Assembly: GCF_056746865.1 (NCBI RefSeq)
Contig: NZ_CM163382.1
DNA: 64,000 nucleotides
Strand: one strand, 5' to 3'
How positions within the stretch are numbered: position 1 is the stretch's first letter; the number at the start of each line of letters is the position of its first letter. The notes under the pieces were generated by a model that saw only the letters and a program-made list of their open reading frames with translations, did not search any database and had not been told where the DNA came from. Made by a program: the position numbers and the translations under genes. Shown here one piece after another: positions 2,241 through 55,397 of this stretch.

Positions 2241-3777
2241 AATAGTCATTAAACCGAATACCTATTTTGATTCTGTCTCGCTGATGTCTATCTCCACGCG
2301 TGCAAATAAACTCGACGGCGTCGAGCAGGCATTTGTGGCGATGGCGACCGAAATGAACAAAGGCGTGCTGAAGAATTTAGGACTGCTGACGCCGGAGCTG
2401 GAGCAGGCGAAAAACGGCGACCTGATGATTGTCATCAATGGTAAATCGGGTGTGGACAACGAGCAGTTGCTGGCGGAGATTGAAGAACTGTTCAACACCA
2501 AAGCGCAAAGTGGCTCGCACGAGGCGCGTTACGCCACTATTGCCAGCGCCAAAAAGCATATCCCGGAAAGTAACCTGGCGGTGATTTCGGTCAACGGTCT
2601 GTTTGCCGCTCGCGAAGCGCGTCAGGCGCTGCAAAACGATCTTAACGTGATGCTGTTTTCCGATAACGTCTCAGTTGAAGATGAACTGGCGCTCAAACAG
2701 TTGGCCCACGAAAAAGGGCTGCTGATGATGGGGCCAGACTGCGGTACGGCGATTATCAACGGCGCGGCGCTCTGCTTTGGTAACGCCGTGCGTCGCGGCA
2801 ACATCGGCATTGTTGGCGCATCCGGCACCGGTAGCCAGGAACTGAGCGTCCGTATCCATGAATTTGGCGGCGGCGTTTCGCAACTGATCGGCACCGGCGG
2901 GCGCGACCTGAGCGAGAAAATCGGCGGCCTGATGATGCTCGACGCCATCGGGATGCTGGAAAACGATCCGCAAACTGAAATCATTGTGCTTATCTCCAAA
3001 CCGCCTGCGCCTGCGGTGGCCCGCAAAGTGCTGGAACGCGCGCGCGCCTGCCGCAAGCCAGTGGTGGTTTGCTTCCTCGGTCGTGGCGAAACGCCGGTGG
3101 ATGAGCAGGGGCTACAGTTTGCCCGCGGCAGTAAAGAGGCGGCGCTGAAAGCGGTAATGCTCTCCGGCGTGAAACAGGAACATCTCGACCTGCATACCCT
3201 GAACCAGCCATTGATTGCTGACGTGCGCGCTCGCCTGCAACCGCAACAGAAATACATTCGTGGCCTGTTCTGCGGCGGCACGCTGTGCGACGAAACGATG
3301 TTCGCGGTGATGGAAAAACACGGCGATGTCTACAGCAACATTCAGCCCGATCCGGAATTCCGCCTGCAAGATATCAGCCGCAGCATCAAACACACCTTCC
3401 TCGACTTTGGTGATGACGACTTCACCAACGGCAAGCCGCATCCAATGATTGACCCGACCAACCGCATCAGTCGCTTGATCGAAGAAGCGCGCGATCCAGA
3501 AGTGGCGGTGATCGTGATGGATTTTGTGCTCGGATTTGGATCGCATGAAGATCCGGTCGGCTCCACCATCGAGGCGATCAAAGAAGCGAAAGCGATCGCC
3601 GCTGCCGAAGGACGTGAGTTGATCATTCTCGCCTATGTGCTGGGTACCGATCTTGATACGCCATCATTAGAACAACAAAGCCAGATGCTGCTTGATGCCG
3701 GAGTGATTCTGGCCAGCAGTAGCACCAATACCGGATTGCTGGCGCGTGAATTTATCTGCAAAGGGGAGGAAGCCTGA
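2230..3777 (+). CDS. yahF: FdrA-like acyl-CoA synthetase/CoA-binding family protein
   Basis: ORF track 515 aa; glycine-rich CoA-ligase-like motifs (GIVGASGTGSQE, GTGGRD). Confidence 0.85.
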   Translation: MSVKIVIKPNTYFDSVSLMSISTRANKLDGVEQAFVAMATEMNKGVLKNLGLLTPELEQAKNGDLMIVINGKSGVDNEQLLAEIEELFNTKAQSGSHEARYATIASAKKHIPESNLAVISVNGLFAAREARQALQNDLNVMLFSDNVSVEDELALKQLAHEKGLLMMGPDCGTAIINGAALCFGNAVRRGNIGIVGASGTGSQELSVRIHEFGGGVSQLIGTGGRDLSEKIGGLMMLDAIGMLENDPQTEIIVLISKPPAPAVARKVLERARACRKPVVVCFLGRGETPVDEQGLQFARGSKEAALKAVMLSGVKQEHLDLHTLNQPLIADVRARLQPQQKYIRGLFCGGTLCDETMFAVMEKHGDVYSNIQPDPEFRLQDISRSIKHTFLDFGDDDFTNGKPHPMIDPTNRISRLIEEARDPEVAVIVMDFVLGFGSHEDPVGSTIEAIKEAKAIAAAEGRELIILAYVLGTDLDTPSLEQQSQMLLDAGVILASSSTNTGLLAREFICKGEEA

Positions 3778-51577: not shown

Positions 51578-52351
51578 TCAGAATTTCCAGGTCAGATGGG
51601 CTGCAAGTTGCAGACCGTTATAATCATCGGTTGGGGTGTCGTACCACACTTTACCTGCCGTCAGCCCGAGATTAAGTTGCTCAGTCAGCGGTTGAATACG
51701 TTGCAAACTGACGCTCTTCATGCTGCCGTAGCGTGTTTCTGGCGTCCAGTCATAGGTGTAAGCACCTGTTCCGCGGCTTAGCCATAGTTGCGTATAACCA
51801 GTGCCGCGCGGGTCATTCAGACGCACGGAAATCATATTGCTGTAACTACCACCTGCATCGCTGGAGTCATAATGGGTATAGCGGTAGCTGGAGATCACCG
51901 GGCCAGTATAGAGTGATACGCCGCCTTGCCAGGCATCGACTTCGACATCATCGTAATATTTAGTGTAGCGATAACCGGTCGTGAAAAGCGTTTTTGGCAA
52001 CAGTGCCAGGTTAATATCCTGACGAAAATCCTGGCGGGCAAAGACCGGCGTATTATCCGCAAAGGCAATACCCATTCGGGTTGTCAGCCAGTTATTCCAT
52101 TTATACCAGACCGCACCCTGACCGCGAGTGGCATTGAAATGTTCAGTTTCATAATCACGACGCCCCTGGGAAAGATTAAAAAGCAGCGTTGCGTTTTCAA
52201 CTTTCGCCACCAGTTCAGCATACGCTAAATTACGGTTGCCATGATCGCCAGAATAATCGGTAAAATCGTAGCCCGCGGTAATGGAAGTTAACCCGGCATA
52301 AGCGGGCAATGTGCTAAAAATTGCTGCCGCTAATAACGTCCGTTTTATCAT
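51578..52351 (-). CDS. yaiO: outer membrane beta-barrel protein
   Basis: ORF track 257 aa; signal peptide; C-terminal aromatic residue (WKF). Confidence 0.9.
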   Translation of the reverse strand: MIKRTLLAAAIFSTLPAYAGLTSITAGYDFTDYSGDHGNRNLAYAELVAKVENATLLFNLSQGRRDYETEHFNATRGQGAVWYKWNNWLTTRMGIAFADNTPVFARQDFRQDINLALLPKTLFTTGYRYTKYYDDVEVDAWQGGVSLYTGPVISSYRYTHYDSSDAGGSYSNMISVRLNDPRGTGYTQLWLSRGTGAYTYDWTPETRYGSMKSVSLQRIQPLTEQLNLGLTAGKVWYDTPTDDYNGLQLAAHLTWKF

Positions 52352-52352
52352 T

Positions 52353-53045
52353 TTAATCTCCTGTACGGATAAGTTCTTGTCGGAGTGAATAAGTTCCGGG
52401 AGGTAAATTACGTTCTACAATCACGCGCGGGCCAAGTTGCGTGTTCGGGGAAATAATTCGCCCAGGCAAAATAATAACTTGTACGCCAAGGCGTGAACGC
52501 TGCCCGATATAACAACCTAATTTATCGCATCCGGTAGCGATAATTCCCTCTGGAGTTCGAACAGACACGGGCTGTTGATCCAGACGATGATTACTGGTAC
52601 GTACTTGTGCGCCCAAATATGCCTGGTTTGCAACTACCGAGTCGGCGATAAAGCATTGCGGACCAATCGTTGCTTCCGCTTCAATAACCGCATTTTTAAT
52701 TTCGGTGGCGAAACCAATTTTTACGCCATTGCTGATTATTGTGCCAGGACGAATAAACGCATAATTACCTATCAGGCAGTTTGCGCCAATCACTACCGGA
52801 CCCTGAATAACGGCACCGTGACAAATACGGGTATTCGCGCCGATAACAACTTCACCTGCAGTTTCATCAATAATTACCTGGTCTGCAATCTGAATATTTT
52901 TCTCTTTAACATTAAGCTTCAGAAAGTTTTTCAGTTCCTGTGACAGAAGGTTGGGAATAAGAGGTTGACGCTTCCACCAGTGCGGAATAGCGGGTGGGTT
53001 TGTCGCGCTGAGGTTCGCGTCCAGTAAAAAAGGCAATAAGTCCAT
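52353..53045 (-). CDS. yaiX: hexapeptide-repeat acyltransferase, apparently intact
   Basis: ORF track frame 52353..53063 (236 aa); left-handed beta-helix repeats; 5' end overlaps yaiP 3' end by more than 130 bp so the true start is uncertain. Confidence 0.65.
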   Translation of the reverse strand: MDLLPFLLDANLSATNPPAIPHWWKRQPLIPNLLSQELKNFLKLNVKEKNIQIADQVIIDETAGEVVIGANTRICHGAVIQGPVVIGANCLIGNYAFIRPGTIISNGVKIGFATEIKNAVIEAEATIGPQCFIADSVVANQAYLGAQVRTSNHRLDQQPVSVRTPEGIIATGCDKLGCYIGQRSRLGVQVIILPGRIISPNTQLGPRVIVERNLPPGTYSLRQELIRTGD

Positions 53046-54108
53046 AAATAATCCAGATGGCATAAGCTAATAATACATACACAACGGAAAGCGGTGCTAA
53101 AGGCACCAACAACCAGCAACGATGAAACCAGGCGCTAAAAGCACCAATAACACAAACTACGCCGACCCAGATAAGCGGAAACATTGCCAACACCACACCA
53201 TACGGCCCGGTGGTGATGAATTCATTAAACCAGGTAGTGAGATAAATCCCAACGCCATAAAGCACAACCAACAGCATAGGAAATATACTGAAGATACCGA
53301 AGCGGCTAAATAAAAGCCTTTTATGCAGGCGCATACAGACCGCGTAGCCCACAATCCAACGCCGCCAGCGACGCCATTCCTCACGCGGGCTGTTGCATTC
53401 CTGTGGGTATACGATGCAGCGATTCGCCTGCCGAATACGATAGCCGTTTGCCACCAATGTCCAGGTGAGATCAAGGTCTTCGACTTTAGTACGATCAGAG
53501 AAACCGAACTTACGCAATACATCAGTACGGAACATCCCGCAGGCACCGCTGATAATAAACGGTGCGCCGCCCAGGAGCTGCTGTAGCGTGCGCTTCATAA
53601 CAATCATCGGCAACTTTACGGTCGCGCGGATGTGCGGTAACAGACCCGCGCCTTTCAACGCAGTAGAGGGAATGCCGCCTACGGCATCAGCACCGCGCTC
53701 TATTTCTGCAAGCATATAGCCCATTCCGTCTTGATCGGGCGGAACATAGGTGTCGGCATCACTTAAAAAAACCTGGTCGCAGGTGGCGTAATTGAGGCCA
53801 TTCATCAGCGCACCACCTTTACCGGTATTTTTTTGCGTGACGGCAACAAAGCGGTCGCCCCATTTGCGTTTGACTTCCGCCATGACCGCTTCGGTATTGT
53901 CCGTGGAGCCGTCGTTTACGCAAATTACCCGGCAAAAATAAGGATTACGCAGCAGATTATCCAGTGACTGTGCCAGACACGGGCCTTCGTTATAAGCAGG
54001 TATAATGGCGTCAATACAGCCTTTCTTTTGACTGGGTTTACGTTTTAGCGTACTTAAAAACCATAGCAACATTGCTATGGACATACAGATAAATATCCAG
54101 GTTTTCAT
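52912..54108 (-). CDS. yaiP: family 2 glycosyltransferase, membrane-associated
   Basis: ORF track 398 aa; GT-A motifs (VICVNDGSTDNT, DAD); C-terminal TM helices. Confidence 0.85.
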   Translation of the reverse strand: MKTWIFICMSIAMLLWFLSTLKRKPSQKKGCIDAIIPAYNEGPCLAQSLDNLLRNPYFCRVICVNDGSTDNTEAVMAEVKRKWGDRFVAVTQKNTGKGGALMNGLNYATCDQVFLSDADTYVPPDQDGMGYMLAEIERGADAVGGIPSTALKGAGLLPHIRATVKLPMIVMKRTLQQLLGGAPFIISGACGMFRTDVLRKFGFSDRTKVEDLDLTWTLVANGYRIRQANRCIVYPQECNSPREEWRRWRRWIVGYAVCMRLHKRLLFSRFGIFSIFPMLLVVLYGVGIYLTTWFNEFITTGPYGVVLAMFPLIWVGVVCVIGAFSAWFHRCWLLVPLAPLSVVYVLLAYAIWIIYGLIAFFTGREPQRDKPTRYSALVEASTSYSQPSVTGTEKLSEA

Positions 54109-54117
54109 GCAATTTGC

Positions 54118-54789
54118 TCAAAGAATCATTTTATGAATTACAAAGCCTTCACCCAGATCGCTATTGACCTGTTGCCCGCGAAATTGTGCAACTGCACGCA
54201 GGCGATCATGACGCATATAATCGCGTCGTTCCTGGCTTTTATGTTTTTTTAATGCAGCAAGTTTGACTGTGAAATATTCTTCTTTAACGGATTCAAAAAC
54301 CTGAGGCATAAATGAAAGCCAGGTGCTTGGGGTTTCGTAGCCGAGAATTTGTGGAATAGTTCGGCAGGCAACCATTGAAGCTTGATAAACAGCAAGATGA
54401 TCCTGATGGCGGTCGGCATCATGCATGGTATATACCCGCATGATTTCAACATCAGAAGGAATTTGATTTTTAATGATGTCTTCCAGGGCGGAAATCATAT
54501 CATTGAGCTGCAAATGCGCGCGGGTGTCAGCAAAATTAAGATGAATAGTTTGGTGGCACCCTAATATCTTTAGGGCGTTGCGCGATTCTTCATGGCGATC
54601 GATTATTCCATCTGTGCCAGAGTTGCCGGTAGTCATCACCACGGCTGCGATATAAATTCCTTTTTGCGCAAGACGAGCAAGCGACGCGCCACAGCCCAAT
54701 TCTATATCGTCAGGATGTGCGTCAATAGCAAGGATACCCTTTCTTTTATTTGCCGAAGAAAGGATGGCTGAATCTAAAACCTTATCCAC
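54118..54789 (-). CDS. yaiS: PIG-L/LmbE-family deacetylase
   Basis: ORF track 223 aa; N-terminal AHPDDIELG motif; exact start uncertain. Confidence 0.75.
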   Translation of the reverse strand: MDKVLDSAILSSANKRKGILAIDAHPDDIELGCGASLARLAQKGIYIAAVVMTTGNSGTDGIIDRHEESRNALKILGCHQTIHLNFADTRAHLQLNDMISALEDIIKNQIPSDVEIMRVYTMHDADRHQDHLAVYQASMVACRTIPQILGYETPSTWLSFMPQVFESVKEEYFTVKLAALKKHKSQERRDYMRHDRLRAVAQFRGQQVNSDLGEGFVIHKMIL

Positions 54790-55397
54790 TTAATGACACT
54801 CCATTTTATTTATTATACTACAAGCACAACGATGCCCGCAGAGACGTAATCTCTGGCACAGACAGATGCTAATTTTTAAGTGTTAAAAATTACTGATAGC
54901 TGAAAAATAAGGGGCTTTCAGGTACGGGGATACGACTGCGTAATCTTTTATGTAGTTCATATGTTAAGTGTTTGTGTGTTTGGTTTGTATAGTTATTTTG
55001 TTTTATATATTGTATTTAGATGTGATTTAGTTTGTCAATTAATTACATATTAAAAATATGTTCTAGGCACAAATATGGATTATATACATTATGTGAATGT
55101 ATTATGTGGTTGATTGAGAATGATACAGTTATATATGCAATGTGAATATAATGATTTCATTATATGTATTGCTGTTAATAAAATAAAAGACATTATGTTC
55201 TGCTTGTTTATGCATTAATAAAAATGAAGTGCAGTAACTTACTGAATTGTCAGCGTGGGTGTAATTGCATATTTAATCTTTCCTTTGCCGCTTTTTTGCT
55301 AAGAATAAAATCATCTGTGCGATAACGACTAATTCTTTTAATGAATGTTTTTATTCCTGAATACTGCTCCTATAACAAGACAGGGGAGCAGACAATC

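Follow-up and report, generated by a model that had tools for sequence, protein, structure and literature searches.

We found that yaiX in the window (the whole stretch of 64,000 nucleotides that was analyzed) is carried by a continuous reading frame. As judged by comparison of orthologous loci, YaiX is most likely 230 aa long, starts at the ATG at position 53045 and has a real 134-nt overlap with the upstream gene yaiP. Taken as a whole, an intact yaiX with this start and with a dual-coding overlap that grew in the enteric lineage is probably the best explanation of the sequences compared. An intact yaiX is already in the literature, while the position of its start and the overlap with yaiP are unaddressed in the papers found or in the RefSeq models.

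The start position matters for the use of the annotation. The RefSeq YaiX in thousands of E. coli genomes is probably missing 37-56 N-terminal residues, including an invariant Trp-Trp pair; if the start is at 53045, a YaiX cloned or modeled from RefSeq records would be a truncated protein. The coordinates are collected in Table 1.

Table 1. Positions of genes, candidate starts and overlap segments at the yai locus of the window.
Feature	Position	Strand	Description
Promoter-like TTGACA-18-TACAAT	55009..55038	(-)	Upstream of yaiS; candidate operon promoter; 11/12 consensus matches (consensus match only)
yaiS	54118..54789	(-)	PIG-L family deacetylase, first in the block; Pfam PIG-L, E = 2e-24
yaiP	52912..54108	(-)	398 aa, family-2 glycosyltransferase; Pfam Glycos_transf_2, E = 5e-28
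yaiX, best delimited	52353..53045	(-)	230 codons + stop; putative LbH (hexapeptide-repeat) acetyltransferase; the conserved ATG, Met7 in the 236-codon ORF, as candidate start
yaiO	51578..52351	(-)	Outer-membrane beta-barrel; Pfam YaiO; TIGR04390, 183.8 bits
First ATG, Met1	53061..53063	(-)	152-nt overlap with yaiP; not kept outside E. coli and E. whittamii
ATT, Ile26	52986..52988	(-)	Three codons 5' of Trp-Trp; possible non-canonical start
TGGTGG, Trp-Trp	52974..52979	(-)	Invariant; marks the ancestral N-terminus of the LbH family
CTG, Leu44	52932..52934	(-)	Where the 193-aa RefSeq/PGAP model starts; overlap of 23 nt
GTA, Val63	52875..52877	(-)	GTG in strain G749, where the RefSeq 174-aa model begins, downstream of yaiP
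Dual-coding overlap	52912..53045	(-)	134 nt; yaiX is read in the +1 frame relative to yaiP
Region A	52980..53045	(-)	yaiX Met7-His28; candidate new N-terminal extension, overprinting a conserved motif of yaiP, YGLIAFFTGREPQRDKPTRYSA
Region B	52912..52979	(-)	Conserved yaiX N-terminal segment (Trp29 onward) over the lineage-specific Ser/Thr/Pro-rich yaiP C-terminal tail

The yaiX reading frame, its product and its neighbors

The original prediction, made from the DNA sequence alone, was that a continuous 236-codon hexapeptide-repeat ORF is present. The ORF listing of the window indeed has an ATG-initiated open frame of 236 aa at 52353..53063 (-), and its translation matched Pfam PF00132 (Hexapep) with 64.3 bits (cut-off, 27; E = 5.3e-18), which places YaiX in the hexapeptide-repeat family. 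An in-frame TAG is located two codons 5' of the first ATG (53067-53069). The ATG codons predicted to lie 130-150 bp within yaiP on the same strand gave overlaps of 152 nt (53063) and 134 nt (53045). That these are the only ATG starts of the ORF in this stretch was also correct, but they are not the only canonical starts: TTG 53036 (Leu10), which the prediction did not mention, is the sole further one 5' of the beta-helix domain. The stretch from this TTG to the beta-helix was scanned and had no ATG, GTG or TTG codon.

The AF2 model of YaiX had a mean pLDDT of 92.8, with short strands recurring from residue 52 onward; residues 21-50, Trp-Trp included, had pLDDT of 86-91. Foldseek matches of this model were the left-handed parallel beta-helix (LbH) domains of ST0452, GlmU and LpxD, so the model has the fold of this class. 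The best solved match was the C-terminal LbH domain of Sulfolobus tokodaii ST0452 (PDB 5z0a, 2ggo), likewise a left-handed beta-helix, with ~34% identity over ~185 aligned columns and a Foldseek E-value of 4e-13. The NCBIfam model Arch_glmU (archaeal/bacterial GlmU-type) covers YaiX residues 47-210. We rejected YaiX as a GlmU ortholog: only the C-terminal LbH part aligns (129.6 bits versus a cut-off of 292.1), and every GlmU model scored far below its cut-off on YaiX. Unlike the GlmU-type enzymes, YaiX has no nucleotidyltransferase domain and has its own short N-terminal segment opening with Trp-Trp. From its sequence, yaiX in the window is a functional-looking, intact gene of a putative LbH acetyltransferase, with acyl-CoA-dependent activity and trimeric assembly as presumed properties.

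The gene is the third in the yaiS-yaiP-yaiX-yaiO block. The end of yaiS is 9 nt from the start of yaiP, the last 45 codons of yaiP (44 sense codons and the stop) are shared with yaiX, and the yaiX stop is 1 nt apart from the yaiO start, with a GGAG within the end of yaiX. YaiP is weakly PgaC/IcaA-like (100.9 bits versus the PgaC cut-off of 422.3). A promoter scan within yaiP, 5' of yaiX, detected no promoter-like site; the only strong match was the one upstream of yaiS.

The gene has yaiP and yaiO as its neighbors and frmR close by, in the same gene order and with 98-100% DNA identity, which identifies it as the yaiX ortholog. Disruption of yaiX by IS2 in K-12, as stated in the prediction, was borne out: in a K-12-like chromosome an IS2 transposase separates two yaiX fragments, with an identity of about 98% to yaiX of the window. 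The K-12 pseudogene yaiX' and the gene of the 236-aa YaiX of non-K-12 strains occupy the same locus between yaiP and yaiO as the gene in the window; yaiX' carries IS2, whereas yaiX of the window is uninterrupted. A 1.1-kb junction query, which takes in the whole yaiX, had a single continuous match over at least 80% of its length in 4,452 of 5,426 complete E. coli genomes. The 171-nt junction was at least 97.7% identical in nearly all genomes listed, a variation too low for a within-species test of the frames.

A 236-aa YaiX has been described in many strains, with a 71-aa form in K-12; the 236-aa protein is the form that was cloned and named, and the 71-aa K-12 fragment was likewise used (PMC13058169, 2026). 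According to Hongu et al., a Shine-Dalgarno sequence is absent. EcoGene 3.0 reports that repair of yaiX in K-12 leads to a clumping phenotype which depends on yaiP (PMC3531124). In the literature on yaiX, yaiP, yaiO and yaiS we found nothing on start mapping, start-site profiling, N-terminal proteomics or the overlap with yaiP. Most literature matches for 'yaiP' were unrelated words.

Conservation of the junction in enteric and outgroup loci

The Trp-Trp pair, located 65 nt upstream of the yaiP stop, was present in 65 out of 65 family sequences. It is retained in Firmicutes though the two genes do not overlap there; therefore, its conservation belongs to the LbH protein. In the nine outgroup loci with the intact arrangement, an ATG or GTG stands immediately 5' of Trp-Trp, and the pair likewise directly follows an ATG/GTG start in frameshifted loci and in loci of candidate phyla. 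The outgroup glycosyltransferase stop begins 8 nt after the first Trp codon, which makes a 14-nt overlap; this arrangement was seen in non-enteric Proteobacteria (Pseudomonas, Stenotrophomonas, Acinetobacter and sphingomonads). The same bases encode the glycosyltransferase end, ...RY-x-x-V-V-E-stop, and the LbH start, ATG-TGG-TGG, with the AGG codon for Arg doubling as a Shine-Dalgarno element.

All 15 enteric loci are without the ancestral ATG, without the AGG codon (CGN in all of them) and without the old yaiP stop. Instead, each of the 15 has an ATG 21-23 codons upstream of the ancestral start with the frame open; its equivalent in the window is the ATG at 53045. The alignment of orthologs proposed as a check in the original prediction thus put the conserved Trp-Trp N-terminus inside yaiP, and no conserved start was seen 3' of the yaiP stop in any of the orthologs aligned.

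In a simulation that shuffled codons while keeping the yaiP protein, the chance of an ATG followed by an open frame was 0.07-0.64 per locus. The product of these chances over nine lineages was about 1e-4, a value that overstates independence because the enteric loci are related and were partly moved by horizontal transfer. In the outgroup, an ATG with an open frame occurred in three of nine loci compared to 2.8 expected. The start in enterics is, therefore, kept beyond the demands of the yaiP protein.

We also observed a division of constraint between the two halves of the overlap. In region A, the identity was 0.82 in the yaiP frame versus 0.60 in the yaiX frame. The synonymous codon identity in yaiP was 0.62 there compared to 0.39 in the rest of the gene, where none of 113 windows reached as high a value. 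By distance, this identity was 0.34 just upstream of the ATG-bearing codon, 0.98 in codons 0-4 and 0.70 in codons 5-9; the onset of the synonymous suppression is exactly at the codon carrying the ATG at 53045. In the outgroup the suppression was absent (0.45 versus 0.43). It spans just about the first ten codons, and another overlapping element could in principle produce it.

In the first 16 codons of region B the identity was 0.58 in the yaiX frame versus 0.32 in the yaiP frame, and nucleotide variability was 0.57 at yaiX third positions versus 0.29 and 0.28. As read from the aligned loci, substitutions in region B track the yaiX frame. Taken together, the two regions show signs of selection on both frames, with the yaiP tail itself little constrained (0.32). 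A conservation value of 0.42 for the LbH core, computed at a fixed offset, was discarded, as the alignment is shifted by indels in the stretch from Trp-Trp to the helix.

From the observed geometry and conservation statistics we infer cellular use of the ATG at 53045; the comparison with the outgroup suggests how the overlap would have originated. The ancestral state would be a 14-nt glycosyltransferase/LbH overlap with AGG as the Shine-Dalgarno element. In the enteric lineage, the ATG of yaiX, the AGG and the stop of yaiP would all have disappeared. The yaiP frame would then have continued for another 2-24 codons (19 in the window), the extension being a poorly conserved Ser/Thr/Pro-rich tail over the conserved yaiX N-terminus. 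Initiation of yaiX would have shifted 22 codons upstream, to an ATG made by TAT-GGA (Tyr-Gly) of yaiP, and would have added to the N-terminus of YaiX the new peptide M-D/E-L-L-P-F-L-L and, after it, a variable linker. The candidate N-terminal peptide predicted for YaiX of the window is MDLLPFLLDANLSATNPPAIPHWWK. This initiation would probably be independent and weak, with little Shine-Dalgarno pairing, in AU-rich unstructured RNA.

On balance, we lean towards reciprocal and datable overprinting in enterics, in which the overlap would have grown from 14 nt to 134 nt. Both genes would have gained from it: YaiX a new N-terminal peptide, out of frame with the end of the last membrane helix of YaiP, and YaiP a new C-terminal tail, out of frame with the old YaiX N-terminus. 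The new hydrophobic N-terminus of YaiX might serve to anchor the acetyltransferase at the synthase or at the membrane. A single base change (TAT to TAC) would delete the candidate start at 53045 and leave YaiP unchanged.

Initiation signals and alternative starts

Analysis of Shine-Dalgarno pairing at all candidate starts detected no strong pairing anywhere and did not discriminate the starts. Upstream of the ATG at 53045 the anti-SD pairing is weak (TGGA, -3.1 kcal/mol), and the strongest pairings of all are at sites within region B, with -4.9 kcal/mol at ATT Ile36 and -4.3 kcal/mol at the RefSeq CTG. The RNA around the ATG at 53045 had a minimum free energy of -3.9 kcal/mol versus -8.7 +/- 2.3 kcal/mol for shuffles (z = +2.1). 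In six of nine lineages the ATG window was within the least-structured 4% of windows over both genes; this structural minimum was missing in the other three. We consider the RNA openness at the ATG as weak evidence, since the AT-rich codons of the membrane helix are a confounder. Encoding this helix, which is rich in Ile, Phe and Tyr, accounts in part for the low GC content and the low degree of structure. Ribosomes translating yaiP cross the site at 53045, and initiation could be hindered.

Under the original prediction, the start could be non-canonical, the overlap could be real or one of the ORFs could be wrongly delimited. The orthologs favor the real overlap, and mis-delimitation seems to apply to the RefSeq models, which with their CTG or GTG starts look to sidestep the overlap. 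The non-canonical start survives as a rival in the form of ATT 52988, close to the ancestral site, although we regard it as unlikely. It would give a protein of ~211 aa and a 77-nt overlap and would retain the ancestral N-terminus. ATT is a proven, if rare, start codon in E. coli, with infC as a precedent. At the matching position, 14 of the 15 enteric loci carry ATT, ATA or ATG, and the remaining one, L029, carries TTG. However, the first two bases are fixed by a conserved Tyr codon of yaiP, so the presence of the ATT is no sign of selection. In addition, it has no upstream anti-SD pairing (+0.4 kcal/mol), the ancestral AGG is gone, and such a start leaves unexplained why an ATG is conserved 22 codons upstream, why the frame stays open and why synonymous change is suppressed. 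Four enteric loci have a true extra ATG 2-4 codons 5' of Trp-Trp; given these, the yaiX start may vary among lineages, as far as the codons themselves indicate.

A start at the first ATG, 53063, would give the 236-aa protein of KEGG-type annotations; for E. coli we consider it quite unlikely. The open frame has its first ATG here, and YaiX was cloned and named in its 236-aa form (PMC13058169). Among enterics with the same geometry, however, only E. coli and E. whittamii have this ATG; the codon is Thr in four other loci and Met again in C. cronae, and in several enterics a stop closes the frame between this codon and Met7. Furthermore, it has no anti-SD pairing (+0.9 kcal/mol), and yaiP has no synonymous suppression 5' of Met7. 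We rejected Met1 as a conserved start, and prefer 230 codons to 236, because of this restriction to two species.

It is very unlikely that RefSeq is correct and that yaiX starts at CTG 52934 (193 aa) or farther downstream (174 aa, GTG at Val63), with the upstream frame untranslated. The CTG was placed at 52934 by mapping the locus coordinates 2867..3448. PGAP uses the RefSeq yaiX starts in thousands of genomes, the cluster of 193-aa proteins has 1,845 members, and AGGA is present just upstream of the CTG (-4.3 kcal/mol). Nevertheless, such a start drops the invariant Trp-Trp and about 15 residues under yaiX-frame constraint, with pLDDT of ~90. The AGGA is 1 nt from the CTG, too near for the normal spacing, as a Shine-Dalgarno element needs a wider one. 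In E. coli, CTG works very weakly as a start, and this position varies among enterics, the Leu44 codon being CTG, GTG, TTG, GTA, ATG, TCT, GCA or GAA. CTG 52934 is probably not the true start of yaiX.

Least probable of all, and highly so, is an enteric yaiX that is an untranslated decaying relic with no working start, or that is made only as a YaiP-YaiX fusion via +1 ribosomal frameshifting: the loss of the ancestral start and of the Shine-Dalgarno codon, the lack of a good Shine-Dalgarno upstream and a T6 run (CCTTTTTTAC) within the overlap would fit it, but the LbH body keeps all family-invariant residues among enterics at 51-93% identity, repaired yaiX gives a phenotype in K-12 (PMC3531124), and the programmed frameshift was rejected given that the T6 run is not kept in the Salmonella and Enterobacter copies, that no glycosyltransferase-LbH fusion occurs among the 120 homologs listed of 523, and that frameshifting has no need of the conserved ATG.

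Comparison with known operons and overlaps

The yai block resembles the PNAG-type operons (pgaABCD / icaADBC): both are tight operons in which a synthase-like membrane glycosyltransferase of family 2 is accompanied by a deacetylase and by a barrel protein of the outer membrane. The clumping phenotype reported for the yai block (PMC3531124) adds to the likeness. On the other hand, the yai deacetylase is of the PIG-L type and that of the PNAG-type operons is of the PgaB type; in addition, the yai block, unlike the PNAG-type operons, has a putative LbH acetyltransferase.

Bacterial overlaps are mostly 1 or 4 nt long, and annotated overlaps longer than 60 nt are mostly start-site errors; in bacteria, long same-strand overlaps that have been verified are rare. 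With its preferred start at 53045, the yaiP-yaiX pair would be a further example of a known phenomenon rather than a new kind of biology. Still, it could serve as a small model of the growth of an overlap and of new peptide segments, with living short-overlap outgroups and with the older frame readable in each half. As in other long same-strand overprinted pairs of bacteria, each half of the yaiP-yaiX overlap has an older frame under constraint and a younger one that is freer. Unlike most overlaps, this one has a short 14-nt ancestor still visible in outgroups, and both of its genes appear to have extended into each other.

The yaiX-yaiP junction and its existing gene models

Pfam searches identified the yaiX ORF as a hexapeptide-repeat (LbH) protein (E = 5e-18) and yaiP as a family-2 glycosyltransferase, with a PIG-L deacetylase gene (yaiS) upstream and the YaiO gene downstream. 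The block is tightly packed: yaiS stops 9 nt before yaiP, and the yaiX-yaiO gap is 1 nt. The yaiX frame is +1 relative to yaiP, and a TAG closes it two codons upstream of the 236-codon ORF. The long same-strand overlap described in the original prediction was observed, 152 nt from Met1 or 134 nt from Met7 (residues numbered from Met1). Both ATGs lie inside yaiP, as had been claimed; TTG 53036 is the sole further canonical start ahead of the beta-helix. A sigma-70-like match lies some 220 nt before yaiS, in the gap towards tauA, which is transcribed divergently; by its sequence it is a candidate operon promoter.

Coordinates of the features discussed (window positions)
Feature	Position	Strand	Remark
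Promoter-like site	55009..55038	minus	TTGACA-18-TACAAT, strong sigma-70-like match, 11/12
yaiS	54118..54789	minus	full 223-codon ORF
yaiS codon 23	about 54721..54723	minus	PIG-L motif AIGAHPDD
yaiP	52912..54108	minus	398 aa
yaiX ORF	52353..53063	minus	236 codons, ATG start, from the ORF listing
Met1 ATG	53063	minus	152 nt upstream of last base of yaiP stop
Met7 ATG	53045	minus	134 nt upstream of last base of yaiP stop
TTG	53036		canonical start
ATT	52988		non-canonical
Trp-Trp	52974..52979	minus	65 nt upstream of yaiP stop
CTG (Leu44)	52934		RefSeq start
Region A	52980..53045		Met7-His28
Region B	52912..52979		Trp-Trp to yaiP stop

In a K-12-like chromosome an IS2 transposase splits yaiX into two fragments, which bears out the disruption described in the original prediction. 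That strains other than K-12 have an intact yaiX was known before; new here are the delimitation of its start and the account of the overlap's origin. A 1.1-kb junction query covering the whole of yaiX had a single continuous match over at least 80% of its length in 4,452 of 5,426 complete E. coli genomes.

RefSeq starts of yaiX are inconsistent between strains. The 193-aa model, from a strain whose sequence across the junction query equals that of the window, begins at CTG 52934 with a 23-nt overlap, while the 174-aa model in strain G749 begins at Val63, coded by GTG there and by GTA in the window. A large ENA-derived cluster of 230 aa has Met7 as its first residue. The 236-aa form was used in a 2026 paper, where the absence of a Shine-Dalgarno sequence was remarked (PMC13058169).

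The K-12-like strain also has TAG instead of CAG at yaiS codon 186 (L004 683-833). Therefore, the 185-aa YaiS of K-12 represents a truncated allele, and with the IS2 the operon carries two K-12 lesions. The untranslated yaiS remnant is overlapped in antisense by the small gene ykiC. Codon 23 of yaiS encodes Asp in the window compared to Gly in K-12; in the strain that shares the window's yaiX junction sequence exactly, RefSeq flags yaiS as a partial pseudogene.

The conserved N-terminus and the arrangement in other lineages

Distant homologs (~50% identity) have 204-208 aa and begin with M/V-W-W-R-E-L, matching His28-Trp29-Trp30 of the window, and both Trp residues were invariant in a 65-sequence alignment built with corrected starts. 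In Firmicutes, which have the two genes without overlap, the LbH protein begins with MYRWW all the same; therefore, Trp-Trp belongs to the LbH protein itself and does not echo the yaiP frame. The original prediction named as its refutation a conserved start beyond the yaiP stop, and none was found among the orthologs. The start of yaiX is very likely upstream of Trp-Trp, which implies an overlap of about 70 nt or more.

Thirty loci were gathered by a scan of species-representative genomes and by individual homolog look-ups. In the outgroup, nine non-enteric Proteobacteria loci whose arrangement is intact, the C-terminus of the glycosyltransferase reads ...TGREPxRDKPTRYxxVV[EDAG]-stop and the LbH gene has ATG or GTG immediately ahead of TGGTGG. 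The glycosyltransferase stop begins 8 nt past the first Trp codon, which gives a 14-nt overlap, and an Arg codon AGG, 7-9 nt upstream of the LbH start, is an apparent Shine-Dalgarno element. The PTRY-motif Arg in these loci (L011-L023) is AGG in eight of nine and AGA in the ninth. AGG is uncommon in many bacteria; here it apparently supplies the Shine-Dalgarno of the overlapping LbH gene, the codon choice being set by the neighboring gene. L014 (a Sphingomonas bin) and L017 (a Stenotrophomonas maltophilia strain) have a shift in the glycosyltransferase frame shortly ahead of the junction, which puts LbH in the +2 frame instead of +1; this may reflect a pseudogene or an assembly error.

The 15 enteric-type loci are the window, E. 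whittamii, Citrobacter, Superficieibacter, Salmonella, Enterobacter, an E. coli paralog, a Yersinia-labelled contig and an Ignatzschineria-labelled metagenome bin. All 15 have lost the ATG before Trp-Trp and have CGN as the Arg codon, and their glycosyltransferase stop begins 14-80 nt past the first Trp codon (65 nt in the window). All 15 also have an ATG 21-23 codons upstream of Trp-Trp with no stop between; it arises from yaiP codons TAT-GGA or CAT-GGA.

The block adjoins Pap/Mrp-type fimbrial genes and IS elements in Salmonella, Enterobacter and the Yersinia-labelled contig (L027, L028, L033, L034), which suggests that the four genes move as a cassette linked to adhesion loci. A few matches were on plasmids (30 and 27 places in two sequence searches). 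The second, divergent E. coli copy of the whole block (L032; LbH protein 62% identical, 55 contigs) has junction peptides that hardly differ from those in the Ignatzschineria-labelled bin (L010), pointing to transfer or bin contamination.

Selection within the overlap and the choice of start

When synonymous codons were redrawn per locus with the yaiP protein fixed, the chance of an ATG with an open frame was 0.07-0.64 per locus; multiplied over nine roughly separate enteric lineages, whose independence is imperfect, it is ~1e-4. Both were present in three of nine outgroup loci, compared to 2.8 expected; yaiX coding is not anticipated in this stretch there.

Mean pairwise identity in region B was 0.58 in the yaiX frame compared to 0.32 in the yaiP frame, and nucleotide variability peaked at yaiX position 3 (0.57 versus 0.29 and 0.28). 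Therefore, constraint in region B lies on the yaiX frame, with the tail of yaiP drifting. In region A the yaiP frame was better conserved (0.82 versus 0.60 for yaiX), with unusually quiet synonymous sites: codons were identical in 62% of identical-residue pairs compared to 39% in the rest of yaiP, a level attained by 0 of 113 sliding windows. The same test in the outgroup gave 0.45 versus 0.43, with 33 of 114 windows as high. Along yaiP, synonymous codon identity was 0.34 for codons -5 to -1, 0.98 for codons 0 to 4, 0.70 for codons 5 to 9 and 0.41-0.47 for codons 10 to 18; the ATG-bearing codon (codon 0) is exactly where the suppression began. This profile is consistent with a start codon, then a conserved N-terminal peptide (M-D/E-L-L-P-F-L-L) and after it a free linker.

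ATG 53045 is probably the main start, giving a 230-aa protein and the 134-nt overlap. The 71 nt around it fold very weakly (-3.9 kcal/mol versus -8.7 +/- 2.3 for shuffles, 200 of 200 folding at least as well), and in six of nine enteric lineages the ATG-centered RNA was among the least-structured 4% of windows across both genes; this is weak evidence, since the same stretch encodes a membrane helix with AT-rich codons. Anti-Shine-Dalgarno pairing before this ATG is just -3.1 kcal/mol.

One rival is a non-canonical start at ATT 52988, also upstream of Trp-Trp. Another is Met1, whose codon is not conserved: other enterics have Thr there, or a stop has already ended the yaiX frame. The RefSeq start at CTG 52934 would cut off a segment modelled confidently by AF2 from the 65-sequence alignment (mean pLDDT 92.8; 86-91 for residues 21-50, Trp-Trp included, 80 for residues 1-10 and 64 for 11-20), and the codon at its position varies among enterics. 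The last alternative is that yaiX is untranslated or made as a +1 frameshift fusion.

Relation to known systems

Delimiting the yaiX start has practical value for annotation. According to the EcoGene 3.0 account, itself drawn from a meeting abstract, repair of yaiX in K-12 leads to vegetative clumping, for which yaiP is also needed (PMC3531124). Taken together with the similarities of YaiX and YaiP, this report suggests that the block is a surface-polysaccharide system. Among solved structures, YaiX is matched best by the C-terminal LbH acetyltransferase domain of Sulfolobus ST0452 (~34% identity), with GlmU domains next; NCBIfam GlmU-type models match the LbH part only, far below their cut-offs. 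YaiP is weakly similar to PgaC/IcaA, at 100.9 bits compared to a cut-off of 422.3.
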